Virus genome (UHGV): UHGV-1366990
Direction: 5' to 3' (one strand)
DNA from: a virus
Length of the DNA stretch: 64,000 bases
Positions within the stretch are counted from its first letter, which is position 1. Every line of letters begins with the position of its first letter. Under the pieces are notes generated by a model. That model had not been told where the DNA came from. It did not search any database and saw nothing but the letters and a program-made list of their open reading frames with translations. Below, in pieces: positions 2,034 to 23,373 of this stretch. The position numbers and the translations under genes are program-made.

Positions 2034-5000
2034 ATGCAAGAAATGAACCTCAACCGCCGCCCATATTGGGATGACTGGAATCCAGAGAAGCGTTTTTCGC
2101 GCATCCTATTCCGTCCGGCACCTATCAAAGTTCAGACGCGTGAACTGAACCAGATACAGACCATCTTCCAGGATCAACTGGAGAAACTTGGCAACCATCT
2201 GTTCAAAGACGGTTCAATGGTTATCCCCGGCGGTCTAACGATCACCAACACTGCTGTGTCCATGAAGTTCACTCTGGCTGGTGGTAGTGAGTTCACTGAT
2301 CTGGAAGGTATCTCCGAACTCTATGTTCTGGGCAAGGACAACAATGCGAAAGCACGCGTCCTGTCCTTGGAACGTTATCCAGCTGAGCCGGATACAATGT
2401 ATGCCATCTTAGAGATTACTGAAAGTGGTAGTTCAGACGGTTTCGAAGCTGGTGACAATCTATATTTCAACACCTATGACGTGAACGATAACTTCATCCG
2501 TGTCGGCTATGGTGTGGCCGATACTGTTGGCGGTTCGATTGTCGCTCGCATGACAAAGGGTGTTTATTTCGTTCGTGGTATGTTCCTGGATGTTGAACCA
2601 ACCACTTTGATCGTAGACAACGCATCGAACTCTACATCTCACCGCATTGGCTTCAAAGTTACAGAAACAATCGTGACCGAAGCAGAAGATGAAAGTCTGT
2701 TCTCCAATGCTCAGGGTACTCCGAACTCTAAAGCCCCTGGTGCGCATCGCCTGCGCGTCGACCTCGTGTTGTCTCGCTACGGTTATGATGAAGAAGTGGC
2801 CGACTTCGTTGAACTGGCGAAGGTGAAAGACGGTCGTGTTCAGTCCATGGTCACCCAGTCAACGTACAACATCCTCGAAGACGCCATGGCTCAGCGTACC
2901 TATGAGACCAACGGGGATTACAACGTCTCTACTCACCAGATCGACCTACGCGAACATCTGAAACAGAACAACAACGGTGGCGTATACACTCCGGCCGAAG
3001 GTGGCGACGAAAGCAAATTCGTGGCGGTTATGAAGCCAGGCATTTCCTACGTTCGTGGTCGTCGTATCGAAAACCTCGGCGAAGAGCTGGTCATAATTGA
3101 CAAAGCCCGTGACACTGATATCCTGAACAACAACCCTGTGGCTGTTTCGACTGGCAACTATCTGGTGTCCAAGAACTCCAAAGGGGTTCCGGTTGTCTCC
3201 CGCACAATCCGCTACAAGTTCCTGAACGCATCCAGCGATGTGCAGGCCACCGCCCTGCTGATTTCGGCAGAGCGCTCTGGTACTGAATTCCGTCTGTATA
3301 TGCGCGACCTGGTTGTGACTGGGGACATGGGTACGGTGACCAAAGTCGCTTATGAAGAAAGCGGTACAACGATGTTCTCTTGCGAACTGGAGTCCAATCA
3401 GTTCAGCCAGAGTTCAGCAATTGACCTGATCTTCCCTCTGCCTGTATTTGGTGTGAAGACTCTAGCACCTACAGGCACCATCGACATCAACTACACCGTC
3501 CTGCGGTCAAACAAGATCACGTTGAACGCCGCTGGTGCAGGCTCAATCTCTGCTCCTCTGGGTTACAGCTTCAGCCCTGAGTTTTCACTGTACTCCGCAG
3601 CGAAGGCAGATGGCACTGCAGCTCAGTTTGATATCTCTTCGGGACTGTCCCTGGCTGGTACTCCGGTTGGTTCAGCACTACAGATTTCCCTGGGCGCGGG
3701 GTACGCCAACCAGTCTATCAACCTGTTGACATTGATGGTCCGCACCACAGCGACGATCAAGACCAAGACTGTTACCGAAGCCACCGAGACTGTGACGTTT
3801 ACTGCGGCGGCCAGCGCACAACTTGGGAACCATGATGGTTACAAGCTGATCAGCGTGAAGAACGCAAATGGCGCTGATGTCACCTCTAACTTCACTCTGG
3901 ACGGCGGCCAGCGTGATGCTGCATACTACCTTTCTAACCTCATATCGTCCGCTGGAGCCATTTCAGGGACGTTCACAGTGGTGTACCAGTACTTCGCTCA
4001 CAGTTCTGGTGATTTCTTCACAGCGGACTCCTATTCGTCCATCAACTACCCAGACATCCCGAACTATGTTTCATCCAGTTCTGGTACTGTGTATGGGTTG
4101 GCCGACAGTCTGGACTTCCGTCCCAAGATCACCAGCGGAGCGTCTGACACGGACATGGTTCGCCCGAACACCGCGATCATCCTAGATGCAGAGTACTATC
4201 TGCCTCGTATTGATGCTGTGTATCTGGCAGACAACGGTGTGTTCAACGTTGCTCGTGGTGTGAGTTCCAACAACCTGGCTTCCCCTGCGATTCCAGACAA
4301 CGGTATGCGTCTGTATGAATTGATGATCCCACCATACACGGCCAACATTGACGACATCCAGATTCGTACTATCGACAACCGCCGCTACACGATGCGCGAT
4401 ATCGGTAAACTGGAGACCCGTATCTCCAATGTCGAATATTACACCTCACTGTCTCAGCTGGAATCCTCGGCGATGTCACAACAGGTATTCGATCCAATTA
4501 CTGGCAACCCGCGCTTCAAGAACGGTATCGCAGCAGACCCGTTCAAAGACTTCCGTCTGATCGACGATTTGTCTGCAGACTGGGTGGGTTCAATCGACAC
4601 TGACAATGGTCGCCTACGCCCGTTTGTTCAGCAGAACGCGATTGACCTGACGCCAGTCGGTTGGAACAACGTTCAGGATGGCATGGTTGTATGCAACTAC
4701 ACCCGTGAGATCTCTGTCCGCCAGGACTATGCAACCACGACCATCAACGTGAACCCGTATGCAGTATTCAACTGGGAAGGTTTCCTGAAACTGAACCCGA
4801 CTACTGATTACTGGTTTGAGAACTACTATGTTACTCCACGTGTGATCAACGAAACGATCAACACCCGTGGTGCGATCAAAGAAGGTTCTGTGTATGGCAC
4901 ATGGCGTACTGTGTCCGTGTCTGAGCGTGTGTGGGAACCACATGGCGCAGGTGGTGTATGGTGGGGCTATCGCTACCGCACGACTGTGTCCACCCGTGAC

Positions 5001-6872
5001 ATTACCACGTACACGTACACCGACAGGACGACCACCACCATGACTGGTGAGCAGATCGTTGAAACGCAGGTAATCCCATACATGCGCAAAACGAACATCA
5101 ACTTCGAAGCCACAGGTCTGCGTCCGTTCACTCGTGTGTATCCGTTCTTCTCTGGACGTGATGTGAGCGCGTACTGTACCCCAAACGGTGGTGTACTGGG
5201 TGGTGCGTTGAACACTGACGCCAACGGTAACATCAAAGGTGTGTTTGCGGTTCCTCAGAACGAGACTATCAAGTTTAACACGGGTGACAACGTTTTCCGT
5301 CTGACTGACAGTCCTGTGGATAGCAAGTCTGCTGATGATACCCTGACCAATGCTGAGGCTGTTCATAAGTCCTTCGGCAAGAAACAGGGCATCCAGAAGA
5401 CTTATGTCAATACTCGCGTCCTGGGATACACTGCGACCAAGTCTACGGAAAACAAAACAGAGACGGTTGAAGTCGCGAAGTGGAAAGATCCTATCGCCCA
5501 GTCCTTCATGGTTGCCACCAATATCGGCGGCGAATACATCGAAGGGATTGAAGTCTTCTTCTCCACCAAGTCCCGTGATATCCCGATCACTCTGGAAATC
5601 CGTGAGATGAGCAATGGTCTGCCAGCGACGACTGTCGTCACTCGTAAGACTCTGAATCCATCAGAAGTTTCCACCTCCACAGACTCTTCTGTGCCGACGA
5701 TGTTCAAGTTTGATTATCCTGTGTATCTGCAGGCGCAGACTGAGTTCGCGATCGTACTCCTGGCCAACACTCAGGACTACAACGCATACATCGCAGAGAT
5801 GGGCAAGAAGAACTTGCTGACCAACGAGTTCATTGCCAAACAGCCGTACACTGGCGTGTTCTTCACATCTTCAAATGGTACGACCTGGACTCCAAACCAG
5901 ACTGCCGATATGAAGTTCCGTGTATATCGCTGTAACTTCTCCGCTGGTTCAAACATCGTGACCTTCGATGCTAAAGTCGGTCCGAAGATCCGCCCTCTGG
6001 GTCTGAATACCGTGAAATGTGTCAACGGTTCTTCAACTGTTACTGTGTACGCTCCGGGGCATGGCCTGACTGCGGGTGAAAGTGTTACTCTGTCTGGGTT
6101 GACAGGTGGTTGCGGTTTCACTCCTGAGCAACTGAACGCTCAACACACTGTGACTGATGCGACGTTCACGACATTCAAATTCGTTCTGAGTTCCAACGCC
6201 GACTCCGACGGTCAGATTGGTGGTGAGGCGGCTTCTTTCCTAGGCAACTACTTGGTAGACATGTTCTACGCAAGCGTCACCAATTCAGCCCTGGAAGGAT
6301 CTGTGTTGAAACTGGAATACCGCTATCGCGATGCGACCTCCAACTCATTCTCTGATTGGGTTGAGTTCGAATCCGATACGGACGTGTCTCTGCCGACGGA
6401 AGGTATCTATCGTCAGGTGGGCGACTTCCAGGTTCGTGCAACCATGACTCGCAACGAGAGTAATGTCTACACGGCTCCAATGATCGACGGTGATGATTTC
6501 ACTATCATCTTCAACACCTACGGTGTGGATCCGTTTGAAGATGTGTTCAGCTATGTGACCAAGGATATCGGATTCGATAACCCTTGCACCACTCTGAAGC
6601 AATACTTCGGCGCGATGCTACCTTCTCAGTCTTCAATGACTGTGCAGGTTAAACTGCTACGCGCAGGTCAGGAGATGGATAACGTGGCATGGGAAACTGT
6701 GACACCGACATCCCCTCTGGTCAATGACGGTTCTGCATTCTTCGAATATGAGTATGACAAGACTGTAGACAGCACCAATCCTTTCGTTGGCCTGAAGATC
6801 CGCCTGCTGGTCAGAGGCAACCGCATAGCACCGCCGTCATTCAAAGATTTCCGTTTGATTGCTCTGGCATAA
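2034..6872 (+). CDS. large virion structural protein (about 1612 aa; tail fibre/baseplate-associated)
   Basis: ORF 1863..6872; first ATG with GGAG Shine-Dalgarno is at 2034 (MQEMNL...); position upstream of neck genes. Confidence 0.7.
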   Translation: MQEMNLNRRPYWDDWNPEKRFSRILFRPAPIKVQTRELNQIQTIFQDQLEKLGNHLFKDGSMVIPGGLTITNTAVSMKFTLAGGSEFTDLEGISELYVLGKDNNAKARVLSLERYPAEPDTMYAILEITESGSSDGFEAGDNLYFNTYDVNDNFIRVGYGVADTVGGSIVARMTKGVYFVRGMFLDVEPTTLIVDNASNSTSHRIGFKVTETIVTEAEDESLFSNAQGTPNSKAPGAHRLRVDLVLSRYGYDEEVADFVELAKVKDGRVQSMVTQSTYNILEDAMAQRTYETNGDYNVSTHQIDLREHLKQNNNGGVYTPAEGGDESKFVAVMKPGISYVRGRRIENLGEELVIIDKARDTDILNNNPVAVSTGNYLVSKNSKGVPVVSRTIRYKFLNASSDVQATALLISAERSGTEFRLYMRDLVVTGDMGTVTKVAYEESGTTMFSCELESNQFSQSSAIDLIFPLPVFGVKTLAPTGTIDINYTVLRSNKITLNAAGAGSISAPLGYSFSPEFSLYSAAKADGTAAQFDISSGLSLAGTPVGSALQISLGAGYANQSINLLTLMVRTTATIKTKTVTEATETVTFTAAASAQLGNHDGYKLISVKNANGADVTSNFTLDGGQRDAAYYLSNLISSAGAISGTFTVVYQYFAHSSGDFFTADSYSSINYPDIPNYVSSSSGTVYGLADSLDFRPKITSGASDTDMVRPNTAIILDAEYYLPRIDAVYLADNGVFNVARGVSSNNLASPAIPDNGMRLYELMIPPYTANIDDIQIRTIDNRRYTMRDIGKLETRISNVEYYTSLSQLESSAMSQQVFDPITGNPRFKNGIAADPFKDFRLIDDLSADWVGSIDTDNGRLRPFVQQNAIDLTPVGWNNVQDGMVVCNYTREISVRQDYATTTINVNPYAVFNWEGFLKLNPTTDYWFENYYVTPRVINETINTRGAIKEGSVYGTWRTVSVSERVWEPHGAGGVWWGYRYRTTVSTRDITTYTYTDRTTTTMTGEQIVETQVIPYMRKTNINFEATGLRPFTRVYPFFSGRDVSAYCTPNGGVLGGALNTDANGNIKGVFAVPQNETIKFNTGDNVFRLTDSPVDSKSADDTLTNAEAVHKSFGKKQGIQKTYVNTRVLGYTATKSTENKTETVEVAKWKDPIAQSFMVATNIGGEYIEGIEVFFSTKSRDIPITLEIREMSNGLPATTVVTRKTLNPSEVSTSTDSSVPTMFKFDYPVYLQAQTEFAIVLLANTQDYNAYIAEMGKKNLLTNEFIAKQPYTGVFFTSSNGTTWTPNQTADMKFRVYRCNFSAGSNIVTFDAKVGPKIRPLGLNTVKCVNGSSTVTVYAPGHGLTAGESVTLSGLTGGCGFTPEQLNAQHTVTDATFTTFKFVLSSNADSDGQIGGEAASFLGNYLVDMFYASVTNSALEGSVLKLEYRYRDATSNSFSDWVEFESDTDVSLPTEGIYRQVGDFQVRATMTRNESNVYTAPMIDGDDFTIIFNTYGVDPFEDVFSYVTKDIGFDNPCTTLKQYFGAMLPSQSSMTVQVKLLRAGQEMDNVAWETVTPTSPLVNDGSAFFEYEYDKTVDSTNPFVGLKIRLLVRGNRIAPPSFKDFRLIALA

Positions 6873-9884: not shown

Positions 9885-10592
9885 ATGAGTGCTATGTCAG
9901 AACGCCTATTATCCACCCTCAGTGCTATCCAAGCGCGGGATGAGGTCGCTCAAGAAGTCATGGAGAAGACCTCGCCTATGGCCAGAAAAGATTACGATCC
10001 GGATACAGGCGAATGGTTGGGTGAAAAGCCTGCGGGGTATGAGCCTGTGGTGTTTCCTCCTTCATTGGACCCAGAAGAGCTGAAGCCCAAGGAGTCTAAG
10101 GTTCCAGACTTCGAAGACACTGATGCCACCACCGACTACAAACGCATCCGTGACACGACTTATGCCATGCAGGAAGCCACGATGTTCATGATGGGACAGG
10201 CAGCCAAACTTGCGACGACGACTGAAGCACCCCGTGCCTTCACAGTCTTCAAAGAGTTGGGTGAACTCATGCGCGGCCTGAACAAAGACCTGATGGAGAA
10301 CCAGAAAACTATCAAGGCGGTCACGGGCGACAGAGAGCCACCTCCTGGAGATGAAACAACCGTCGAGGTCACCACGTCCCCTGATGGCACAACCACGGTC
10401 AACGTCGGTAAACAGGCCAGGTCTTCCCGTGATCTACTGAAGACCATCGAAGACGCCCGTAAACGTGCTGAAGAACGTGCTGCAGCGAAAGCTGCGTCCA
10501 AAGGACCTGATCCCGAAGAAGATGTAATCGACGTTCAGGCCGAGCCGCAGCCGAAGGAAGAAGGTGAAGACAATGGCGTATCAGAAGCGTGA
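9885..10592 (+). CDS. putative terminase small subunit (gp16 position)
   Basis: Acidic Pro/Glu-rich protein; ATG at 9885 with GGAG upstream; synteny only. Confidence 0.4.
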   Translation: MSAMSERLLSTLSAIQARDEVAQEVMEKTSPMARKDYDPDTGEWLGEKPAGYEPVVFPPSLDPEELKPKESKVPDFEDTDATTDYKRIRDTTYAMQEATMFMMGQAAKLATTTEAPRAFTVFKELGELMRGLNKDLMENQKTIKAVTGDREPPPGDETTVEVTTSPDGTTTVNVGKQARSSRDLLKTIEDARKRAEERAAAKAASKGPDPEEDVIDVQAEPQPKEEGEDNGVSEA

Positions 10593-12783
10593 TGTAGAAT
10601 ACGCCCCACTCAAGACGGGGTTTAAGACAGAAGACGTCAGACTGCGTATGGACCAAACGTTCATGCGCAAGCCGTCTGTGCGCGCTCCTCGTGTGGAGTT
10701 GATGCTAACAGATGAGCAGGAATCGGAGTTCGTCGAGTGCGCGATGGACGCCCATTACTTCGCCGCCAACTACTACAAGATCACGACCATCGATAAAGGC
10801 TTCATCCTCTTTGACATGCACGATTACCAGAAGCAGTTGTTCCATGACTTCCAGGACTATCGATTCAATGCGGTCGTCCAGGCTCGTCAGTCTGGGAAAT
10901 GTGTAAAAGGTGACACGCTTGTCACAGTTTACGATACTCTCAGCCAAGAGCAGTTGCTCCTGACCATAGGGGAGCTTCACAGCCGCTTCGAGGACGTCAA
11001 TCACGCTGTGCCGCTGAATACCATTGGCAACCATGACAAGTTCGTGGACAGCCGCTTCGGCAAACGTTACTTTGTGCAATCCGATAGTGGCTGGGTTCCG
11101 GTTATCGCAGCGCATAAGACGAAGAAATATGCGGAATTCGTTATTGTGACTGTTACTGGGCGGCGAATTAACGTGGCCGACGAACATATATTCTTCACTC
11201 CGGAAATGAAGGAGATATTTGCCAAAGACCTGAATGCTGGGTCATACATCATGACGTCAGAAGGTCCAGAAGAAATCCGTGAGGTTTGGCAGACTGGTGA
11301 GACGCATCACATGTATGACCTACAGGTGAAATCTAGTGATCAGCGCTACTACACCAACGGCTTCCTCAGCCACAACACGACAGTCGTGGCAGCGTTCCTG
11401 CTCTGGTATGCGATGTTCCACTCCGACAAAGAGATCGCAGTACTGGCGAACAAAGAGAAGCAGGCGATTGAAATCCTAGATCGTATTCGCAAAGCATATC
11501 AAGATTTGCCATTCTTCCTCCAACAGGGTTGTGAGAAGTTCGGTTCCACGCTGATAGAGTTCGAAAACGGATCAAAGATCTACGCCTATGCGACATCTTC
11601 CGACTCCATCCGTGGTCGATCTGTATCGCTCCTGTATGTGGACGAAGTGGCGTTCATTGAAAACGACTTTGAATTCTGGGAGTCTACATTCCCGGCGATT
11701 GCATCTGCAGAGACTTCACGTTGTATTCTGACCAGTACGCCGAAAGGTCAGCGCGGGTTGTTCTACGACATCGTCACCAAGGCGAACCCAGAACACCCAC
11801 AATACAACGACTTCAAACTCACCGAGGTCCCATGGTATCGTGTTCCAACGTACACCAAAGATCCAGACTGGGAATCCAAACAGAGGGCGAAGCTGGGTGA
11901 TGCACGTTTCGATCAAGAATTTGGCATTAAGTTCCGTGGTTCTGTGGGATCACTGATACCTGCCAAGTGTCTGGACAAGATGACCTCGAAGCTGTATCAG
12001 GAGCCGAACGAGTTCACCAAGATTTATCACGACTACGATCCCAAACGCATCTATATGGGTATCGCAGATACAGGCAAGGGTGTCGAAGGGGATTATTCTG
12101 TACTGACCATTATCGACATCACAGACTATCCTCACAAGATCGCAGCCAAGTATCGAAATAACACGATACCTCCAATGATGTACGCGTACACAATCGCCGA
12201 TATGGGCGAGAAGTATGGAACGTGCCCGATGCTAGTCGAGACTAACAACGACGTGGGTGGTCAGGTAATCACAATTCTATACCAGGAAATTGAATATCCA
12301 GAGATCATCTTCACTACAACAGATACCAAGGGTACAGGCAAAAGAATCGGTGGTCGCCGCCCTGAGCCTGGTATCAATACCAACAAGAAGGTGCGCACAA
12401 ACGGCTGTGCCAACCTGAAAGCCCTGATTGAACGTGAAATGCTGGTGATAGATGACCAGGACACGATAGATGAACTCAGTACATTCGTATGGACTGGAAC
12501 AAGGTATGAAGCCGATGATGGTTGTCATGATGACTGTGTAATGCCCCTCGTGTTGTATGCATGGGCGGTGAAACAAGAATGGTTTAGTGATCTCACCAAT
12601 TCAAATATCTCTGTGGACATGAGAGGACGGTTGTCTGCGATGGAAGAATCTCAGATGCTACCATTTGGGGGTATGATGTCGACGCCAGATCCTCACTCTG
12701 TGGAGAACATCCCAGGGTTCGGTGGAATTCAGGTTTATGATGAACGCTCTGGTGTGTCTATGGAAGAATGGCTGAGACGGTGA
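10573..12783 (+). CDS. terL: terminase large subunit (T4 gp17-like), intein-containing
   Basis: Exteins QARQSGK + TTVVAAFLLWYAMF...ILTSTPKGQRGLFYDIV align to T4 gp17 P-loop and downstream motifs; ATG at 10573 (ORF track starts at GTG 10564). Confidence 0.9.
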   Translation: MAYQKRDVEYAPLKTGFKTEDVRLRMDQTFMRKPSVRAPRVELMLTDEQESEFVECAMDAHYFAANYYKITTIDKGFILFDMHDYQKQLFHDFQDYRFNAVVQARQSGKCVKGDTLVTVYDTLSQEQLLLTIGELHSRFEDVNHAVPLNTIGNHDKFVDSRFGKRYFVQSDSGWVPVIAAHKTKKYAEFVIVTVTGRRINVADEHIFFTPEMKEIFAKDLNAGSYIMTSEGPEEIREVWQTGETHHMYDLQVKSSDQRYYTNGFLSHNTTVVAAFLLWYAMFHSDKEIAVLANKEKQAIEILDRIRKAYQDLPFFLQQGCEKFGSTLIEFENGSKIYAYATSSDSIRGRSVSLLYVDEVAFIENDFEFWESTFPAIASAETSRCILTSTPKGQRGLFYDIVTKANPEHPQYNDFKLTEVPWYRVPTYTKDPDWESKQRAKLGDARFDQEFGIKFRGSVGSLIPAKCLDKMTSKLYQEPNEFTKIYHDYDPKRIYMGIADTGKGVEGDYSVLTIIDITDYPHKIAAKYRNNTIPPMMYAYTIADMGEKYGTCPMLVETNNDVGGQVITILYQEIEYPEIIFTTTDTKGTGKRIGGRRPEPGINTNKKVRTNGCANLKALIEREMLVIDDQDTIDELSTFVWTGTRYEADDGCHDDCVMPLVLYAWAVKQEWFSDLTNSNISVDMRGRLSAMEESQMLPFGGMMSTPDPHSVENIPGFGGIQVYDERSGVSMEEWLRR
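10900..11376 (+). mobile_element. mini-intein (159 aa) inserted in TerL Walker A
   Basis: Begins with Cys (CVKGDTLV), ends ...FLSHN followed by Thr +1; removal restores a contiguous GK-T P-loop; too short for an endonuclease domain. Confidence 0.75.
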
Positions 12784-12835: not shown

Positions 12836-14731
12836 ATGGCAACTCAAAGCTTCAGCGTTGCGCCGTCCGTACAGTGGACTGAGCGTGATGCCACGCTTCA
12901 GACGTCTCCATCCGTTGTTGTTCAGGGTGCGACTGTCGGCAAATTCCAATGGGGTGAAGCAGAACTCCCTGTGTTGGTCACTGGTGGCGAAACTGGTCTG
13001 GTGAAGAAATTCTTCAAGCCAAACGATGCAACTGCCACCGACTTCTTGGTGATTGCTGACTTCCTGTCTTACAGCTCTGTTGCATGGGTGACCCGTGTGG
13101 TCGGTCCGGCGGCACGCAACGCTGTAACCAAAGGTCAGACTGCAATCCTTATCCGCAACAAACTAGACTTCGAAACTGCGTCCCCATCTGCGTCTATTAC
13201 TTGGACAGGCCGCTATGCTGGCTCTCTGGGTAACGACATTGCTGTGAACATCTGTGATGCTGCGCTGTTCCCGACCTGGGAATTTCGTAACAACTTCGCA
13301 TATGCTCCGCAGGCTGGCGAGTACCACATCGCCATCGTTGACAAAGTAGGTCGTATTACCGACTCTTCTGGCGCTGTTAGTCAGGTTGACCGTATCTCTG
13401 TATCCGGTACTGCCACCGCTGCTGGTTCCATCTCTGTTGCTGGTGAAGCCGTGGCGTACACTGACGCTGACACCCCGGCGACTCTGGCGACAAAGATCGG
13501 AACCGCGCTGACGTCTCTGTCTGACGTGTATTCTTCTGTTGTCGTGAAGTCCAACACCGTCACCGTCACCCACAAAGCAATCGGTCCTCAGGCTGCGACT
13601 GCGATTGTTCCAGACGCGAATGGTCTGACTGCTACCGCTGCCGTCACCACTGTTGGTGCTTCCGGTACGATCATCGAGAAGTATGAACTGGTGCAGACCG
13701 CTCAGGGTTCTAAGAAATCTGATGGATCCAATGCGTACTTCAAAGACGTGATCAACGGCACCTCAAATTGGGTGTACACCTTCGCCACTACCCTGGCTGC
13801 TGGTGTCATTGAACTCGAAGGTGGTGTAGACGATTACACTGGGAACCGTGTTGCGGCTATCCAGGCACTGAACAACGCCGAAGCGTATGATGCCAAGCCA
13901 GTGTTCGGTTTCTGTGAAGAACTGATTGAGCAGCAGGCACTGATCGACCTGTCCACCGAGCGTAAAGACACAGTGTCCTTTGTGTCTCCTCTTCGCGATA
14001 CGGTCGTCGGAAACCGTGGCCGTGAGATGGATGATGTTGTGGCCTGGCGTGAAAGCCTTGTTCGCGACTCCTCCTACTTCTTCATGGATGACAACTGGGC
14101 GTATGTGTACGACAAGTACAACGACAAAATGCGTTGGATTCCGGCTTGTGGCGGCACCGCAGGTGTTTGGGCGCGAAGCATTGAAATCGCGGGTATCTAC
14201 AAGTCTCCAGCGTTCCATAACCGTGGTAAATACAACAACTATAATCGAATGGCGTGGTCTGCGTCTTCTGATGAGCGTGCTGTGCTGTATCGCAACCAGA
14301 TCAACAGCATCGTCACCTTCTCCAACGAAGGCATCGTGTTGTACGGCGACAAGACTGGCCTGACCCGCCCATCGGCGTTCGACCGCATCAACGTTCGTGG
14401 TCTGTTCATTATGGCAGAGCAGAATATCGCAGCCATCGCCAAATACTACCTTGGTGAGAACAACGATGCATTCACTCGTGGGTTGTTCAGCAACGCTGTC
14501 CGCCCATATATCCGCCAGTTGGCCAACATGGGCGCGATCTATGACGGGATGGTGAAGTGTGACGAGGACAACAACACCGCTGATGTTATCGCTGCGAACC
14601 AGATGGTCGCGGGTATCTGGCTGAAACCAGAATACTCCATCAACTGGGTGTATCTGGACTTTGCTGCGGTACGTCCGGACATGGAGTTCAGCGAGATCGA
14701 AACTGGCGGTGGCATCGTAGCCGCTTCTTAA
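12836..14731 (+). CDS. tail sheath protein (T4 gp18-like)
   Basis: Shares GKFQWG, YDKYND, RW(I/V)P, FDRINVR and TRG motifs with recalled T4 gp18; ATG at 12836 with AGAAGGA Shine-Dalgarno. Confidence 0.9.
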   Translation: MATQSFSVAPSVQWTERDATLQTSPSVVVQGATVGKFQWGEAELPVLVTGGETGLVKKFFKPNDATATDFLVIADFLSYSSVAWVTRVVGPAARNAVTKGQTAILIRNKLDFETASPSASITWTGRYAGSLGNDIAVNICDAALFPTWEFRNNFAYAPQAGEYHIAIVDKVGRITDSSGAVSQVDRISVSGTATAAGSISVAGEAVAYTDADTPATLATKIGTALTSLSDVYSSVVVKSNTVTVTHKAIGPQAATAIVPDANGLTATAAVTTVGASGTIIEKYELVQTAQGSKKSDGSNAYFKDVINGTSNWVYTFATTLAAGVIELEGGVDDYTGNRVAAIQALNNAEAYDAKPVFGFCEELIEQQALIDLSTERKDTVSFVSPLRDTVVGNRGREMDDVVAWRESLVRDSSYFFMDDNWAYVYDKYNDKMRWIPACGGTAGVWARSIEIAGIYKSPAFHNRGKYNNYNRMAWSASSDERAVLYRNQINSIVTFSNEGIVLYGDKTGLTRPSAFDRINVRGLFIMAEQNIAAIAKYYLGENNDAFTRGLFSNAVRPYIRQLANMGAIYDGMVKCDEDNNTADVIAANQMVAGIWLKPEYSINWVYLDFAAVRPDMEFSEIETGGGIVAAS

Positions 14732-14739
14732 TTTACTCC

Positions 14740-14759
14740 ATGCCCTCTTCGGAGGGCAT
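14740..14759 (+). terminator. stem-loop ATGCCCTC-TTCG-GAGGGCAT
   Basis: Perfect 8-bp stem with TTCG loop right after the sheath stop; no strong U-tract. Confidence 0.4.
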
Positions 14760-14773
14760 ATTGAGGTATTGTT

Positions 14774-15076
14774 ATGAAAAGTTTTTCTCAATTTTTAGCA
14801 GAAGCAGGTCTAAAAGGTGACCTTCAGAAAGTTAAAGACTCCGTGATTGAATGGTTGGAAGACCAAGATGTAAGGCTCAAAAAGGGTGATATCGAAAATG
14901 GAGTATTTGGAGATTTCTTCCGCATAACCATTGATGATTTTGAATATACATATAATGGCAAAGAGATTAAAGTATTCGACCTGAAGAAAGATAAACAGGT
15001 TGTTAGCAAGGCTGCTGGAACTCGAGAAGCCCCAGGTGAACTCGGTAAATTGTTTAAGAAATACAGCAAAGTGTAA
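14774..15076 (+). CDS. hypothetical protein (100 aa)
   Basis: ATG with GAGGT Shine-Dalgarno; Lys/Asp-rich; inside the insertion island between sheath and tube. Confidence 0.5.
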   Translation: MKSFSQFLAEAGLKGDLQKVKDSVIEWLEDQDVRLKKGDIENGVFGDFFRITIDDFEYTYNGKEIKVFDLKKDKQVVSKAAGTREAPGELGKLFKKYSKV

Positions 15077-15081
15077 CAAGA

Positions 15082-15109
15082 CCCCGCTTCGGCGGGGTTT
15101 TAAATTTTT
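15082..15109 (+). terminator. rho-independent terminator CCCCGC-TTCG-GCGGGG + T-run
   Basis: GC stem with TTCG loop followed by TTTTAAATTTTT. Confidence 0.7.
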
Positions 15110-15131
15110 CCAGATTATTTTATTGAATTAC

Positions 15132-15159
15132 TTTACTTCTTCAATAACTCACGTATAAT
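15132..15159 (+). promoter_or_regulatory. sigma70-like early promoter (TTTACT-16 nt-TATAAT)
   Basis: -35 TTTACT at 15132-15137 and -10 TATAAT at 15154-15159; part of a repeated cassette. Confidence 0.5.
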
Positions 15160-15207
15160 TCTAAACATAAGCAGTACGACACCAACTTGAAACGAAGGAT
15201 CTATATC

Positions 15208-15564
15208 ATGACCAAGACCGAAATTAACGCTATCCTGAAAGAAATCGGCCTCTGTAACCTGAAACGCCGCATCAATCCTTACCAGCCTGCAAAGCCAGTA
15301 CGCGACAGCCAGGGAAAGATGATAAAAGGGATCTACTGTGCAGATGTTGGTCCAATGACGGTGACCAGTCCACACATTGACAGATTTAACGCTATTGTTG
15401 GGGAGTTTTGTGGTAAGGTTCTGGGTAAACTGTCTAATGATTTATGCTCCCCAGATACCAAAGTTGTAGCTTTCGGGAGCCACCTCGTCACCTTCCACCT
15501 CACCACCTTCCGTACCCACGGTGATTATCATGTGTATTATGCTCAGGTTAGCATTCGCAAATAG
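15208..15564 (+). CDS. hypothetical early protein (118 aa)
   Basis: ATG within the conserved AAGGAtCTATATCATG start region; ORF track frame. Confidence 0.55.
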   Translation: MTKTEINAILKEIGLCNLKRRINPYQPAKPVRDSQGKMIKGIYCADVGPMTVTSPHIDRFNAIVGEFCGKVLGKLSNDLCSPDTKVVAFGSHLVTFHLTTFRTHGDYHVYYAQVSIRK

Positions 15565-15570
15565 TAGTTT

Positions 15571-15598
15571 ACCCCGCTGAGGCGGGGTTTTAGTTTTC
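15571..15598. terminator. bidirectional terminator CCCCGC-TGAG-GCGGGG + T-run
   Basis: Between convergent genes 15208..15564 (+) and 15603..15878 (-). Confidence 0.65.
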
Positions 15599-15602
15599 CA
15601 GT

Positions 15603-15878
15603 TCATACCGGATAAGACCACACCCCCCCCCAGATACACCCCAACCCGGTTTCTATCGCCAGTATATCCTCTGTTTTACCTTCTACATTGTATCCAAGTT
15701 TAAGGAATTTCTCTTTCCTGAGTTTACTATCAACCCAAGATCGGCATTCAGTTTCGGTCGTCGGGTTGTTATCCAACAAACCCGGATTGCGTTTCATCGT
15801 CCCCAGCATGAATGATTTACATTCGTCACTACAATACAACGCAGCCTTCCTGGTTGGGTGAACGGTTTGTGACAGCAT
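15603..15878 (-). CDS. homing-endonuclease-derived small protein (nuclease core absent)
   Basis: N-terminal YCSDECKSF and C-terminal GYNVEGKTEDILAIETGLGCIW match the ends of the 490-aa endonuclease at 21901..23373 (FCSDACKTF / GYDVEGKTESQLATEAGLVRIW). Confidence 0.5.
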   Translation of the reverse strand: MLSQTVHPTRKAALYCSDECKSFMLGTMKRNPGLLDNNPTTETECRSWVDSKLRKEKFLKLGYNVEGKTEDILAIETGLGCIWGGVWSYPV

Positions 15879-15950
15879 GAACAATTTTTATCGGGGAATG
15901 GCATAATAAATATCCTCACTTTGGAGTATTTTAACCCCCATTTATTTCAA

Positions 15951-15960
15951 AACTAAATAT
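15951..15960 (+). promoter_or_regulatory. late-promoter-like motif AACTAAATAT
   Basis: 26 nt upstream of the tail tube ATG. Confidence 0.4.
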
Positions 15961-15985
15961 TTACACTATTCAGAGGAGAACGACC

Positions 15986-16519
15986 ATGGCTACAGTTAAT
16001 GAATTCAGAGCAGCTATGTCACGCGGGGGCGGCGTTCAGCGCCAACACCGTTGGCGTGTGACTGTTAACTTCCCTTCCTTCGTGGCTGGAAGCGATACTA
16101 TCCGTGATGTTTCGCTGTTGGCGGTGACCACAAATACCCCAACAGGCCAGCTCGGGGAAATACTCGTCCCATGGGGTGGTCGTGAACTTCCATTCCCAGG
16201 CGACCGTCGTTTCGAGGCTCTGCCTGTGACGTTCATCAACGTCGTGGACAACGCTCCGTACAACGCATTCGAAGTCTGGCAGCAGTATATCAACGGCAGC
16301 AACAACAACCGTGCGTCTGCTAACCCAGATGATTATTTCCGTGATGTAATCATGGAACTGCTGGATGCTAACGACAACGTCACCAAGACCTGGACCCTTC
16401 AGGGCACCTGGCCTCAGAACCTCGGTCAGCTGGAACTGGACATGTCTGCAATGGACTCTTATACTCAGTTCACTGTTGACCTGCGTTACTTCCAGGCCAT
16501 TTCAGACAAGTCTCTCTAA
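15986..16519 (+). CDS. tail tube protein (T4 gp19-like)
   Basis: C-terminus LQGTWPQNLGQLELDMS...QFTVDLRY resembles recalled T4 gp19 IKGLWPTNVGELQLDWD...TFEVTLALDY. Confidence 0.85.
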   Translation: MATVNEFRAAMSRGGGVQRQHRWRVTVNFPSFVAGSDTIRDVSLLAVTTNTPTGQLGEILVPWGGRELPFPGDRRFEALPVTFINVVDNAPYNAFEVWQQYINGSNNNRASANPDDYFRDVIMELLDANDNVTKTWTLQGTWPQNLGQLELDMSAMDSYTQFTVDLRYFQAISDKSL

Positions 16520-16543
16520 TGTCCTCAGTGCTGGGGGATCTTT

Positions 16544-16553
16544 ATTCCCCCTC
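16544..16553 (+). promoter_or_regulatory. late-promoter-like variant CACTAATTAC
   Basis: Preceded by hairpin GGGGGA-N7-TCCCCC; 33 nt upstream of the portal ATG. Confidence 0.35.
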
Positions 16554-16585
16554 ACTAATTACAAGAAAATGTTGAGGACTTAATC

Positions 16586-18280
16586 ATGGCATTCGGTAAT
16601 GGTGCATTCGGAAATGGGTTCTTCGGCTTGTTCGGCAGAGGCGGCAAAGTAGAAGCGCCGATTGATACCGACAAGATGGTCACGAACCAAGAAGAGAAGT
16701 TGCTTTCAAAAGCGACTGTTGTTGCGCTGGACGATTCTCAGGATGGTTCCATCATCCTCCAGGGCGGCGCGAACACATTCAATTTCGTTGGTGTTGAGAA
16801 TGAGTTGCTCAACGTCAAACAGCTGGTCGAAGAGTACCAGTCTATGGCTCAGCAGCCTGAGATTCGTAAGGCTGTGGATATCATTGTCAACGACATCGTC
16901 ACCTGTGAAGAGGAAGAGACTCCTGTAACCATCAACCTGGAAAAGGTGGATGGCGTCACAAACGAAGTCAAAGAGAAGATCACTGACGCATTCAAAGAGA
17001 TCATGCATCTCCTTGACTTTGACAACACGGCGTATCAGAAGATCCGCAAATGGTATATTGAAGGCCGTCAGGCATTCCACGTTGTGGTGGACCCGAAGAA
17101 CAAGAAAGCGGGTATCGCCAAACTCATCATGATGGACTCACGCTGTATCCGTCCTGTATACATCGTTCAAAAGGCGATGCGCGACGGTATCGAAGTCATC
17201 AATGACGTAAAACTTCAATACTACTACAACCCGAACTACAACCGCAACCAATTCACTGGCCAGTCCGGAACGTCTCAGAACTTCCAACCGTCACAGCAAG
17301 AGCTGGTGTTTGATGATGAGAGCATAGTGTATCTGGACAGTGGTGAAGAGCCTCTGGCGAATGGGGTTGTGCCAAGCCTGCTGAACCCAGCTATCCGTCC
17401 CCTGAACAACCTTGTTACAACTGAAGATGCAACGGTGATCTATGCGATCACACGTGCTCCTGAGAAGCGAGCGTTCTATCTCGACGTGGGTACGCTGGGT
17501 AAGAAGTCGGCCGAAGAATACATGCAAGCCATGATGGGCAAATTCAAGAACCGTCTGGCGTATGATCGCACCACTGGTAAGGTGGCTGGTAACACTCATT
17601 TGATGGGCATCGCTGAGGACTACTGGTTACCACGTCGCGAAGGGCAGAACGCAACCGAGATCTCCAACGTAGGCGGTGGCGATCAACTGGGTCAAATGGA
17701 TCATGTGGTATACTTCCGCGAGAAGCTCTACGAGGCTCTGATGATCCCTAAGAGCCGCCTGCAAGAGGAAGGTTCCATCAACATCGGTGGTTCCAATCTT
17801 GCTGAAATCACACAGGAAGAACTGCGCTTCAACAAGTTCTGTGCGAGCCTGCGCCGTCGTTATTCTTCTGGTATCTTCCTGGAACTTCTGCGCCGTCAAC
17901 TGATATTGAAAGGCATTACAGATCAGGCTGACTGGAATGAGAAGATCAAGCCGTTCGTCAAGTTCGAATTCACTTCTGACAGCTTCATCCGTGAACAACA
18001 AGAGAACGAAATCTTGTCACAGCGTATGGCGGCTCTCGGTCAGATCGAACCATATATCGGCACTCTCTTCTCTATCGATTTTGCTCAACGCAATTTGCTG
18101 CGTATGTCCGATGAAGACATCAAAGACCAGCAAGAGAAGATCGCGAAAGAGAAGAAAGAAGGCAAATACCCTGAAGTGCAGGCAGATGAGTCCGGCGGCT
18201 TCGGCAGCGGGGAAGTCAGTCCACTGAAATTCAGACCTAACGTCATCCCAGCGACTAACCCTCCTGGTGGTGAAGAATAA
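16586..18280 (+). CDS. portal protein (T4 gp20-like)
   Basis: 564 aa in the gp20 position between tube and prohead core genes; GAGGA Shine-Dalgarno. Confidence 0.8.
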   Translation: MAFGNGAFGNGFFGLFGRGGKVEAPIDTDKMVTNQEEKLLSKATVVALDDSQDGSIILQGGANTFNFVGVENELLNVKQLVEEYQSMAQQPEIRKAVDIIVNDIVTCEEEETPVTINLEKVDGVTNEVKEKITDAFKEIMHLLDFDNTAYQKIRKWYIEGRQAFHVVVDPKNKKAGIAKLIMMDSRCIRPVYIVQKAMRDGIEVINDVKLQYYYNPNYNRNQFTGQSGTSQNFQPSQQELVFDDESIVYLDSGEEPLANGVVPSLLNPAIRPLNNLVTTEDATVIYAITRAPEKRAFYLDVGTLGKKSAEEYMQAMMGKFKNRLAYDRTTGKVAGNTHLMGIAEDYWLPRREGQNATEISNVGGGDQLGQMDHVVYFREKLYEALMIPKSRLQEEGSINIGGSNLAEITQEELRFNKFCASLRRRYSSGIFLELLRRQLILKGITDQADWNEKIKPFVKFEFTSDSFIREQQENEILSQRMAALGQIEPYIGTLFSIDFAQRNLLRMSDEDIKDQQEKIAKEKKEGKYPEVQADESGGFGSGEVSPLKFRPNVIPATNPPGGEE

Positions 18281-21900: not shown

Positions 21901-23373
21901 ATGTATCAGGTAATCTGTAGTGTCTGCCATGAACAGTTCAAAGCATCCAGGAAAGATAAGAAATTTTGTTCAGATGCTTGCAAGACCTTCGCATCGAACA
22001 CCCTAAAGAACCTCCCGGAAGGTTTCCTTGAAGCAGTGAATGAATTGTCTGACGAGGAATCATATCGCCAATTTTTCTACAAATATATGTTTACCAAGAA
22101 CAACAAATTGGATATCCAAAAATGCAAATCTGAACTGCTTATGAAGCACATCAATGTAGACCTTTTAGCGTTCGCCAATACCCACAACACCCTACAAGAT
22201 TTGGCTTGTAAAGTCACAGCTTGGCTGTACAATAGAACCGTGAAAATATGCCCGGTGTGTTCCAAGGAAACCAACTTTTATATCAATAATAAAGATTACA
22301 GAACATATTGTTCTGAAGAATGTTATCAGGTTTCTATGTGTAAAGGTGGGATTGGTCGGAAAGCCATAGAGACTTCGAATATATCCAAATACGGGAGCTG
22401 CTCCACACTACAATTACCTGGTGTGAGGGAGAAGGCGTTGGCAACGTTACAAGAACGTTATGGTGTTGACAACCCTATGAAAAACTCGAACATACTAAAA
22501 CGTGCGTTGTTCAGCAATGGTTCTATCAGGAACAAGAAATCTTCTTATGAAAAGGAAATATCCGAGTTTCTCACCTCAATGGGAGTTGTAAACACTGTTT
22601 CTGATTACAGTATATTATCCGGTAAACAACTGGATATCTATTGCCCTGAACACAAATTGGCGATTGAATTTAATGGTCTGTACTGGCATTCAGAAGTTTT
22701 TAAAGAGAAACATTATCACCTGGAAAAGACTGAAATATGTGAATCTCAGGGTATCCAGTTGGTCCACATCTGGGAAGATGAATGGGTTGAGAAACAGGAA
22801 GTGGTCAAATCTCTTCTGAAAGCTAAACTTGGCATTAAAACGCCTGCGTCATATGCTCGCCAACACAAAGTCGTTTGGGGGAATATAAGCGGCTTGAGGG
22901 AGTTTTTAGACAACCACCACATACAAGGTTCCGTTTCTTCCACCCACCATTTATCGTTAATTGACAAGAGTGGGGTCATACAAGCCGTGATGCTATTCAC
23001 TAAAAGGAAAGATGGCCTGGAATTAGTCAGATTTGCCTCTAATGATTGCCACGGAGCATTCAGTAAACTTCTTTCACACTTCAGAAGAAAATTTGCCGGC
23101 ACCAAAATCTATTCCTTTGGGGATAGGTGTGTTGTAAGCAGGTTGTCCAACATTTACCTATCCCACGGATTCGTAGAAGAGGAAGTACAGAAGCCAGACT
23201 ACAAATATCACAAGCCTGGCACATTTATGCGTGAGCACAAATTCGGTTTCAGAAAAGGTTCATTTGCTCGCATGGGGTATGACGTAGAAGGCAAAACAGA
23301 AAGCCAGTTAGCAACCGAAGCCGGGCTGGTCAGGATTTGGAATTGTGGACTGATCAAATATGTCTTGAACTAA
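21901..23373 (+). CDS. freestanding homing endonuclease, Vsr-like PD-(D/E)xK type with N-terminal zinc ribbons
   Basis: Repeated CxxC pairs at the N-terminus; core LDIYCPEHKLAIEFNGLYWH matches the Vsr/DUF559-type signature; GGAGGAG Shine-Dalgarno; inserted after the capsid gene. Confidence 0.6.
   Translation: MYQVICSVCHEQFKASRKDKKFCSDACKTFASNTLKNLPEGFLEAVNELSDEESYRQFFYKYMFTKNNKLDIQKCKSELLMKHINVDLLAFANTHNTLQDLACKVTAWLYNRTVKICPVCSKETNFYINNKDYRTYCSEECYQVSMCKGGIGRKAIETSNISKYGSCSTLQLPGVREKALATLQERYGVDNPMKNSNILKRALFSNGSIRNKKSSYEKEISEFLTSMGVVNTVSDYSILSGKQLDIYCPEHKLAIEFNGLYWHSEVFKEKHYHLEKTEICESQGIQLVHIWEDEWVEKQEVVKSLLKAKLGIKTPASYARQHKVVWGNISGLREFLDNHHIQGSVSSTHHLSLIDKSGVIQAVMLFTKRKDGLELVRFASNDCHGAFSKLLSHFRRKFAGTKIYSFGDRCVVSRLSNIYLSHGFVEEEVQKPDYKYHKPGTFMREHKFGFRKGSFARMGYDVEGKTESQLATEAGLVRIWNCGLIKYVLN

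Follow-up and report, generated by a model that had tools for sequence, protein, structure and literature searches.

Hef of the T4-related phage U5 was reportedly described by Sandegren, Nord and Sjoberg in 2005. Hef-type enzymes have been placed in the EDxHD family, typified by I-Bth0305I (Taylor et al. 2011, PMC3239194; PDB 3R3P), and the Hef-like free-standing endonuclease F-LimVIII, which adjoins the tail tube gene of phage LIMEstone1, was assigned to this type by the authors of that genome (Adriaenssens et al. 2012, PMC3296691). In contrast to U5 Hef and the EDxHD enzymes, those of the Ackermannviridae carry additional zinc ribbons at the N-terminus, DUF7487 repeats and a C-terminal domain of ~190 aa. 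We found no published cleavage or homing test of F-LimVIII-type enzymes in the literature. Homing endonuclease genes of phages can degenerate, as the defunct T4 gene I-TevIII shows (Wilson and Edgell 2009, PMC2790892), and Edgell et al. 2010 (PMC2988022) cite a degeneration phase within the homing cycle.

The 64,000-nucleotide stretch of viral DNA analysed here (the window) comes from a Vi1-like coliphage of the Ackermannviridae that shares 98% identity with Escherichia phage ZQ1. We propose, with a probability of about 90%, that the minus-strand ORF between its tail sheath and tail tube genes is an internally deleted and frameshifted pseudogene of a Hef-like endonuclease gene orthologous to F-LimVIII. 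Like F-LimVIII and the intact orthologues of other phages, it lies at the sheath-tube locus on the minus strand with a palindrome of divergent putative late promoters upstream, and its retained 5' part is 87-97% identical to these genes at the nucleotide level. Unlike them, it has lost 1467 bp including the nuclease domain, carries two frameshifts and encodes no endonuclease; none of the catalytic residues of the EDxHD family is retained. This is ordinary selfish-gene decay of a known Hef-type gene that is intact in sister phages. As in the decay of I-TevIII, a site-fixed selfish endonuclease gene has been killed by deletion and frameshifts and is eroding stepwise. In contrast to that case, intact, half-decayed and further-decayed states are found here in near-identical genomes, with two junction variants, and a flank of the remnant appears to have been co-opted for the expression of an essential neighbour. 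The locus therefore makes the degeneration phase of the phage homing cycle accessible in a small, testable system, although the evolutionary point is modest.

Composition of the sheath-tube interval

The interval from the sheath stop (14731) to the tube start (15986) measures 1254 bp and is AT-rich (37-48% GC versus 52-56% in the flanking genes). Its features, its flanks and a related gene elsewhere in the window are as follows.

12836..14731, plus strand: tail sheath gene (gp18-like), left conserved flank (Pfam Phage_sheath_1C and Gp18_domIII_N)
14742..14761, plus strand: native sheath terminator hairpin ATGCCCTC-TTCG-GAGGGCAT, read from the sequence, with a weak T-tail
14774..15076, plus strand: ORF A, 100 aa, no assigned function, no Pfam or PHROG match
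15078..15101, plus strand: terminator 2, ACCCCGC-TTCG-GCGGGGT with a T-run (terminator scan)
15132..15159, plus strand: sigma-70-like promoter TTTACT-16-TATAAT upstream of ORF B (scan, 10/12 matches)
15208..15564, plus strand: ORF B, 118 aa from its ATG, no assigned function (phrog_13016, E=5.5e-42)
15571..15588, plus strand: terminator 3, 3' of ORF B (scan and alignment to ZQ1 and A221)
15590..15714, minus strand: 3' fragment of the endonuclease pseudogene, ancestral codons ~555-594 (alignment to ZQ1 and A221)
15603..15878, minus strand: 91-aa ORF (93 aa from an upstream TTG) spanning the fused fragments, with no Shine-Dalgarno sequence
15715..15721, minus strand: deletion junction TCAGGAA (TTCCTGA on the plus strand), a 7-nt microhomology at which the BLAST breakpoints overlap by 7 nt
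15722..15904, minus strand: 5' fragment of the endonuclease pseudogene, codons 1-~61, with the zinc ribbon (alignment to ZQ1)
15954..15963, both strands: palindrome TAAATATTTA, two putative divergent late-promoter -10 boxes directed toward the tube and endonuclease genes
15973..15985, plus strand: leader GAGGAGAACGACC with ribosome-binding site, derived from the cassette and joined without a gap to the tube ATG (comparison of occupied, empty and GIY-YIG sites)
15986..16519, plus strand: tail tube gene (gp19-like), right conserved flank (annotated as tail tube in all relatives)
21901..23373, plus strand: intact 490-aa Hef-like homing endonuclease gene after the major capsid gene (phrog_3339, E=1.7e-156)

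The last 1.2 kb of the sheath gene is ~99% identical in nucleotides to the available annotated sheath part of ZQ1, LHE287 and A221, and the tube protein scores 27.6 bits against Pfam Phage_T4_gp19, slightly below the cutoff of 28.2. The first-pass annotation had judged the spacing against T4, in which the two genes are adjacent; this yardstick does not apply to a phage of the Ackermannviridae, for which the correct empty-site reference is Ag3, with a spacer of 78 bp. The size variation among relatives that it had named as a check is strong, as spacers range from 78 bp in Ag3 to 2725 bp in ZQ1 and measure 2107-2725 bp in the phages with an intact Hef-like gene. Its inventory of two small ORFs, a 91-aa minus-strand ORF, an early promoter cassette and three terminators was borne out, with one sigma-70-like promoter and three hairpins, the first of which has a weak T-tail. 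The interval is also an insertion island, as had been suggested, but it did not arise as a single insertion: it consists of three modules with differing distributions among relatives, namely ORF A, ORF B with its own promoter, and the endonuclease cassettes, joined at common terminator hairpins.

Two endonuclease families use this interval, a mosaic, as a hotspot. GIY-YIG (Seg-like) endonucleases occupy the same site in RPN242, Magnus, CBA120 ('SegD') and Menlow, but they belong to an unrelated protein family, lie on the plus strand and leave the native tube leader in place. In LIMEstone1, an internally deleted GIY-YIG remnant adjoins F-LimVIII.

The native leader, found in Ag3, RPN242, Magnus, CBA120 and LIMEstone1, is missing from the window, where cassette sequence with TAAATATTTA and GAGGAG stands instead. 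This palindrome is conserved between the window and ZQ1, A221, maane and LIMEstone1, and the LIMEstone1 annotation places a putative late promoter on each of its strands. Judged from these motifs, the 5' flank of the endonuclease gene now supplies the putative late -10 motif and the ribosome-binding site of the tube gene. A mobile cassette can thus take over the signals by which an essential structural gene is expressed, and because the cassette has replaced these signals, its clean excision would be costly.

Decay of the endonuclease gene

An intact minus-strand Hef-like gene (Vsr-like, EDxHD) of ~594 aa is found at this site in ZQ1 (with 98% identical flanks), A221, PC3/PH4, maane, Mutine, KE31 and the Dickeya LIMEstone phages. 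In ZQ1, A221 and maane, it is a CDS of 1776-1785 nt between ORF B and the tube gene, and the LIMEstone1 occupant of this place is the published F-LimVIII. The nuclease domain of the intact gene covers residues ~320-410 (EIEI, IDIYCPEHKLAIEFNGLYWH, IWEDEW). The top PDB match of the intact orthologue is I-Bth0305I (3r3p), a weak match (E=0.088) that spans the KLAIExNGxYW...EDDE motifs, and weak MTES_1575/DUF559 matches were also obtained. The family corresponds to phrog_3339 'homing endonuclease', which the remnant matches at E=6.6e-6.

Window positions 13500-15721 align with positions 1-2219 of the ZQ1 locus and positions 15715-17100 with 3686-5072. TCAGGAA is present in a single copy at the junction and in two copies 1467 bp apart in the intact gene of ZQ1. 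The loss (codons ~62-550) takes the second zinc finger, the DUF7487 repeats, the entire nuclease domain and most of the C-terminal domain, and it is in frame, joining the N-terminal zinc ribbon to the C-terminal module. The Vsr-like nuclease domain with its E...D...H...D residues lies inside the deletion and is absent from the remnant. Because no nuclease domain is kept, the remnant is derived from the family yet is not a functional member of it. The suggestion that a decayed homing endonuclease gene without its nuclease core is present here is thereby confirmed.

Two homopolymer changes, scored against four intact alleles, further disrupt the gene. In the 5' fragment, a C4 run has become C3 at 15856-15858, and this -1 frameshift splits the zinc ribbon; the authentic ATG at 15904-15902, with GAGGA upstream, now encodes just a 36-aa product. 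In the 3' fragment, a G5 run has expanded to G9 (the C-run 15623-15631 on the plus strand), a +4 frameshift near the C-terminus that swaps out the last 11 residues. Six independent gut-metagenome contigs (ENA) carry lesions identical to those of the window, with 100% identity over the 431-bp remnant including both homopolymer runs, and sequencing error as the source of the frameshifts is thus ruled out.

Other deleted alleles were also found. In LHE287 and L020 the junction differs, being (TTG)AACT, with 1465 bp deleted and 7-9 gap openings in addition, whereas contig L019 has the window-type junction and has lost another 70 bp between TTCATGCTG repeats, and the zinc ribbon with them. The deletion, the -1 and +4 frameshifts and the differing, more extensive lesions in other carriers together identify the minus-strand ORF as a pseudogene. 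Near-identical Ackermannviridae genomes and metagenome contigs catch successive stages of decay at one hotspot: the intact gene, core deletion with frameshifts, and further deletion. Substitutions in the remnant number 10/335 relative to ZQ1 (p=0.026) and 24/328 relative to LHE287 (p=6e-10), against 41/3180 in the flanks. The remnant is under relaxed constraint, and its erosion is continuing.

Origin and persistence of the remnant

The zinc-ribbon start and the C-terminal module that the first-pass annotation had seen in both the 91-aa ORF and the 490-aa endonuclease are significantly similar in pairwise BLASTP alignment (13/30 identical, E=3e-5, and 18/32 identical, E=4e-9, respectively), and a tblastn search of the whole window with the ORF gave E=1.3e-5. 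The 490-aa protein shows weak Pfam matches to MTES_1575, DUF559 and Vsr, and both sequences belong to one PHROG family. These similarities at both ends would suit a decayed duplicate of the 490-aa gene, an intragenomic paralogue produced by an earlier transposition. However, the remnant is 94-100% identical in amino acids to the ZQ1 sheath-tube endonuclease in its N-terminal part (E=8e-30) and 84% in its C-terminal part (E=2e-11), against 43-58% to the 490-aa protein, and it is collinear in DNA with the ZQ1, A221 and LIMEstone1 genes at 87-97% nucleotide identity. The orthologue comparison refutes the duplicate origin, to which we give virtually no weight. The 490-aa protein and the ZQ1 enzyme share 41% identity (E=2e-150), which excludes the ZQ1-type gene as a recent derivative of the 490-aa gene. 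Of the proposed 'decayed paralog', then, membership in the same protein family stands, but the remnant did not descend from the 490-aa gene; it is the orthologue of F-LimVIII and of the 594-aa ZQ1 endonuclease. Hardly more than a formal alternative, in our estimate, is that the short form is ancestral and that a small gene gave rise to the 594-aa genes when a nuclease core was inserted into it. The in-frame relationship alone would favour such a history, but full-length genes (81-90% protein identity) are spread across three groups, namely the unclassified Aglimvirinae coliphages (ZQ1, A221), Kuttervirus and Limestonevirus; short forms are found in one shallow clade only and are frameshifted; and each of the two differing junctions is explained by microhomology in the long form.

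Retention of the remnant as a small zinc-ribbon DNA-binding protein, whether to act as a repressor or to occupy the site and so confer immunity to renewed invasion by the intact endonuclease, is very improbable. The in-frame fusion of ribbon and C-terminal module, the undamaged ancestral promoter, Shine-Dalgarno sequence and ATG, and the identical 91-aa ORF called on the 6 metagenome contigs speak for such a protein. However, the 91-aa ORF is an artefactual reading frame across the fused fragments: it holds the second Cys pair only and lacks a ribosome-binding site, the first pair and the authentic start with its Shine-Dalgarno sequence are in another frame, and its C-terminus is altered by the +4 frameshift. 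LHE287 and L020 combine their out-of-frame deletion with many indels, and L019 has no zinc ribbon. No single ORF unites a four-Cys ribbon, translation signals and conservation, and the frames of the other carriers are incompatible with one. The six contigs are identical in DNA, which points to a single recent lineage and not to conservation. When the repaired 103-aa fusion was searched against 5.8 billion proteins, three remnant-derived ORFs were the only matches, all from this lineage; the search was word-indexed and also missed the full-length endonucleases, so that this negative is not strong evidence against a family of mini-proteins. The idea that the ORF was retained as a DNA-binding protein was therefore not upheld, and the label of the 91-aa ORF in annotations should be homing-endonuclease pseudogene rather than hypothetical or DNA-binding protein. 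The 36-aa peptide, an antisense transcript or the DNA itself may have a role. It is unlikely, if less so than a retained protein, that the junction types are a selected deletion outcome, in which the nuclease is dead, both ends are kept for cis elements or target disruption, and the remnant DNA serves as a regulatory or immunity spacer. The two junctions fall within ~20 nt of each other on both sides, and the deletion repeat lies outside the 15 best repeat families in a direct-repeat scan of the ZQ1 gene. Since it is not among the strongest repeats, mutational bias alone offers no obvious account of the coincidence, and deletion at an exceptionally strong direct repeat or mutational hotspot was not demonstrated by the scan. 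The reliance of the tube gene on the cassette-borne -10 motif and ribosome-binding site and the LIMEstone1 GIY-YIG remnant, which also retains both ends, would fit selection as well. Against it, the ~200 nt and 125 nt of the remnant on the two sides of the junction lie a long way from promoter and terminator, the remnant gains substitutions and indels faster than its flanks, and one heteroduplex over an imperfect 27-nt repeat, whose two strands can have become the two junctions, could give both. The window and LHE287 share ACC to ACT and CGT to TGT changes that are absent in ZQ1, A221 and maane; LIMEstone1 also has T at the first of these positions. We likewise consider unlikely the broader notion of a domesticated 'scar', both regulatory and anti-homing, in which recurrent, near-identical core deletions were selected for silencing a costly nuclease, the ends were kept as the -10 motif and ribosome-binding site of the tube gene, and re-invasion of the ZQ1 type was possibly blocked by continued disruption of the recognition site of the endonuclease.

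For decay of an F-LimVIII-type gene, we can envisage the following history. The endonuclease would have entered the sheath-tube spacer through homing driven by a double-strand break, would have become useless once empty targets were rare, or harmful, and would now be lost by microhomology-mediated deletion. The 1467 bp between the TCAGGAA repeats went first, and the two homopolymer frameshifts followed. Because the deletion was in frame and 4/5 of the window-specific substitutions in the N-terminal fragment are synonymous, a brief functional mini-protein phase possibly preceded the frameshifts. Both ends may persist because adjoining cis elements are needed: the late -10 motif and ribosome-binding site of the tube gene on one side and the ORF B terminator on the other.

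Small genes and terminators of the interval

The Pfam search gave no match for ORF A, ORF B or the remnant, and no paralogue of ORF A or ORF B was found elsewhere within the window. The AlphaFold model of ORF B reached a pLDDT of 91 from a 6-sequence alignment (66-70 in the remaining four models). Compared with the PDB, this model gave nothing significant (best E=0.03, TM<0.3), and compared with BFVD, it matched uncharacterised phage proteins only. An Rfam scan of 14500-16200 gave sub-threshold matches only, the best being RsmY with 25.5 bits against a gathering score of 57; these matches overlie the terminator hairpins and were dismissed as chance.

ORF A is a separately mobile small-gene module (about 14728-15074). 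It is missing from A221 and maane, although the rest of the locus is common to them. By tblastn, no more than 5 phages have it: ZQ1, LHE287 and Magnus carry it at this site, SKML-39 carries it immediately behind the capsid gene, and CAU_YEP3 has it as well. By tblastn, ORF B is present at the sheath-tube locus only in phages with a Hef-like endonuclease gene, intact or deleted, and it is located after the capsid gene in Magnus; its promoter sequence is identical in A221. Terminator 3 borders directly on the ancestral endonuclease stop codon, which is on the opposite strand. The native sheath hairpin is also found 3' of the sheath gene in Ag3, RPN242, Magnus and LIMEstone1. The terminator 2 hairpin follows ORF A in Magnus and lies directly 3' of the sheath stop in A221 and LIMEstone1; common to the ORF A module and the endonuclease cassette, it is likely to be the recombination joint between the two.

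The sheath-tube interval and its content

The genes in the window run in the order terminase, sheath, tube, portal, protease, scaffold and capsid. In a megablast search of 50,697 phage records, positions 14000-16600 matched 281 Ackermannviridae (Vi1-like) genomes, with Escherichia phage vB_EcoM-ZQ1 (98.4%), LHE287 (97.4%) and A221/PC3/PH4 (97-98%) as the top matches. Because the best matches are Ackermannviridae, T4 is a distant reference only, and Aglimvirinae plus Cvivirinae form the suitable comparison set. The sheath-tube island is richer in AT than its flanks, and all the features named there in the first-pass annotation, including three GC-rich hairpins, are present:

14731, end of the sheath gene
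14742-14761, GC-rich hairpin
14774-15076, plus strand, ORF A (100 aa)
15078-15101, GC-rich hairpin (terminator 2)
15132-15159, promoter TTTACT-16-TATAAT
15208-15564, plus strand, ORF B (118 aa)
15571-15588, GC-rich hairpin
15603-15878, minus strand, ORF of 91 aa
15986, start of the tube gene

Rfam yields a sub-threshold RsmY match (25.5 bits; gathering score, 57) at 14984-15101, where ORF A ends and terminator 2 lies; it is most likely due to chance and driven by the hairpin. Five models of ORF B were computed from a 6-sequence alignment, and the top one is confident (pLDDT 91, pTM 0.82; the other four, 66-70), with a predicted alpha/beta fold; a structure search found no significant PDB match for it, and its structural relatives are uncharacterised phage proteins only, one of them from the T4-like Acinetobacter phage ZZ1.

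Origin and decay of the minus-strand gene

The minus-strand ORF had been read as a decayed paralogue of the 490-aa endonuclease encoded at 21901-23373. BLASTP confirms a significant likeness in two collinear segments, the C-terminal module (18/32 identical, E=4e-9) and the zinc-ribbon region (13/30 identical, E=3e-5). However, closer relatives occupy the same position in other phages: a 1785-nt minus-strand CDS annotated as 'putative homing endonuclease' in ZQ1, endonuclease CDSs in A221 and Salmonella phage maane, and, at the corresponding place in Dickeya phage LIMEstone1, F-LimVIII, classed by its describers as a Hef-like free-standing homing endonuclease adjoining the tube gene (PMC3296691). 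The N-terminal piece of the remnant shares 94-100% identity with the ZQ1 protein and the C-terminal piece 84%, against only 43-58% with the 490-aa protein; the full-length ZQ1 endonuclease and the 490-aa protein share 41% identity (E=2e-150). The remnant is thus orthologous to F-LimVIII and only distantly paralogous to the 490-aa gene. The notion of a fossil homing endonuclease thus survives in spirit, with a different parentage and without retention as a protein. The full-length gene is present in 26 of the 27 phage records matching the remnant; LHE287 alone is collinear with the window.

Among PHROG families, the intact orthologues hit phrog_3339 'homing endonuclease' (E=3.5e-191); their Pfam matches, to MTES_1575, DUF559 and Vsr, are weak, and so is the top PDB sequence match, I-Bth0305I (3r3p), across KLAIExNGxYW...EDDE (E=0.088). 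The Vsr-like 'EDxHD' family of Taylor et al. 2011 expressly takes in phage Hef-type enzymes (PMC3239194). The kind of element, its family and its locus are already described, and the window adds a new, decayed example.

Window positions 13500-15721 align with 1-2219 of the ZQ1 locus and 15715-17100 with 3686-5072; therefore, 1467 bp of the ZQ1 gene are missing. The two blocks share 7 nt, TCAGGAA (gene sense), found at both ZQ1 breakpoints, the hallmark of deletion through microhomology. The deletion keeps the frame (489 codons) and takes away the second zinc finger, the DUF7487 repeats, the Vsr-like nuclease core and most of the C-terminal domain, leaving no part of the catalytic region. Compared with four intact alleles (ZQ1, A221, maane and LIMEstone1), the C-run at 15856-15858 is 1 nt shorter, which sets the authentic start (ATG at 15904, with GAGGA ahead) and the first Cys pair of the zinc ribbon out of frame with the rest; only 36 codons are open from this start, and the internal ATG of the 91-aa ORF has no Shine-Dalgarno sequence. 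A G5-to-G9 expansion at 15623-15631 alters the last 11 residues. Assembly error was rejected as the source of these lesions, as the 431-bp remnant recurs with 100% identity, both homopolymer runs included, in six independent gut-metagenome contigs from ENA. The remnant is enriched in substitutions relative to its flanks, against both ZQ1 (10/335 versus 41/3180, p=0.026) and LHE287 (24/328 versus 41/3180, p=6e-10). By its sequence, we consider it a dead endonuclease gene.

The junction differs in LHE287 and in L020, a 151-kb Logan metagenome contig, where the retained N-side piece is longer by 20 nt and the C-side piece shorter by 18 nt, so that 1465 bp are deleted, out of frame; they join at AACT (TTGAACT if the deletion arose in a maane-like allele) and carry 7-9 gap openings besides the deletion. 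Upstream of its junction, LHE287 has a maane-like patch (GGTCAATCTTCCG), which suggests that this deletion occurred independently of that in the window, from another parental allele. However, window and LHE287 have two changes in common, ACC to ACT (a position that is T in LIMEstone1 too) and CGT to TGT, that are missing in ZQ1, A221 and maane. As the junctions also lie at opposite ends of one imperfect 27-nt repeat, a single heteroduplex could have given rise to both, one from each strand. L019, a 23-kb Logan contig (SRR25011136, 1400-1900), has the window-type junction and a further 70-bp deletion between TTCATGCTG repeats, through which the zinc-ribbon coding sequence is gone; owing to this deletion and a G-run length unlike that of the window, the gene caller gives a 125-aa ORF antisense into ORF B. 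With the repaired fusion as query, 5.8 billion proteins yielded three ORFs only, all derived from these remnants, and no conserved mini-protein family, a weak negative because full-length endonucleases were also missed. Together, the lesions, the decay series and the protein search argue strongly against retention as a DNA-binding protein, a possibility raised in the first-pass annotation that is at odds with the differing junctions, the extra indels and the loss of the zinc ribbon in L019. The stages of decay of this endonuclease gene are sampled unusually well.

Cassette ends and the tube gene

The native tube leader (CTAATTAGAATTGTGTAAC...GGAGAAT...ATG) is conserved in Ag3, RPN242, Magnus, CBA120 and LIMEstone1 and missing in the window, ZQ1, A221 and maane, in which the tube ATG is joined to cassette sequence with the palindrome TAAATATTTA (15954-15963), which the LIMEstone1 annotation marks as divergent late -10 boxes, and GAGGAGAACGACC. 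Because the native leader is gone, the right cassette end would now be needed for expression of the essential tube gene. The left end adjoins the ORF B terminator, and these two constraints may be why the cassette has not been cleanly lost; dependence on the ends does not alone account for the ~200 and 125 nt of leftover coding sequence. Part of the interest of the locus lies in this putative co-option of a promoter and ribosome-binding site by the tube gene.

Mosaic structure and other elements

Spacer size differs widely among relatives, from 78 to 2725 bp.

Sheath-tube spacers (sheath stop codon to tube ATG)
Ag3, 78 bp: empty
CBA120, 547 bp: short GIY-YIG gene
RPN242, 816 bp: GIY-YIG
Magnus, 899 bp: ORF A and GIY-YIG
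LHE287, 1250 bp: ORF A, ORF B, endonuclease remnant
Window, 1254 bp: ORF A, ORF B, endonuclease remnant
LIMEstone1, 2107 bp: F-LimVIII
maane, 2378 bp: ORF B and endonuclease
A221, 2383 bp: ORF B and endonuclease
ZQ1, 2725 bp: ORF A, ORF B, endonuclease

The island is a mosaic hotspot. ORF A is a separate indel (14728-15074), lacking in A221 and maane and known in five phages only, with the SKML-39 copy directly 3' of the capsid gene. ORF B occurs in this spacer only in phages with the Hef-like gene, intact or deleted, and elsewhere lies 3' of the capsid gene in Magnus and in another region in Kuttervirus. The hairpin ACCCCGCTTCGGCGGGGTTTT, the last element of the ORF A module in Magnus and the first of the endonuclease cassette in A221 and LIMEstone1, is a likely recombination joint between the two. 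In the window, the intact 490-aa Hef-like endonuclease lies directly 3' of the major capsid gene, a position held by an ORF B homologue in Magnus and an ORF A homologue in SKML-39, which suggests that small-gene cassettes have been exchanged between the sheath-tube and post-capsid hotspots.

Against RPN242, whose spacer carries a GIY-YIG endonuclease, the sheath gene has 27 mismatches over its final 700 nt, 23 of them within the last 140 nt (window 14593-14713); ZQ1, LHE287 and A221 have no such cluster. The cluster looks like a tract of co-conversion or target-site variation linked to the GIY-YIG element. LIMEstone1 (locus L007, 2916-3127) retains, in the stretch separating the F-LimVIII cassette from the tube gene, the native sheath terminator together with ~46 nt from the start and ~20 nt from the end of an RPN242-type GIY-YIG endonuclease unit. 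Like the Hef-like remnant of the window, this remnant has both ends kept and the core deleted, and it shows the original insertion place of the Hef cassette.

At 10900-11376, a 159-aa mini-intein (CVKGDTLV...FLSHN/T) appears to split the Walker A P-loop (RQSGK/.../T) of the large terminase (gene at 10564-12783), with a Pfam Intein_splicing match under the gathering score (E=1.2e-6). As this stretch is found in ~190 Ackermannviridae records, the mini-intein looks fixed in the family.
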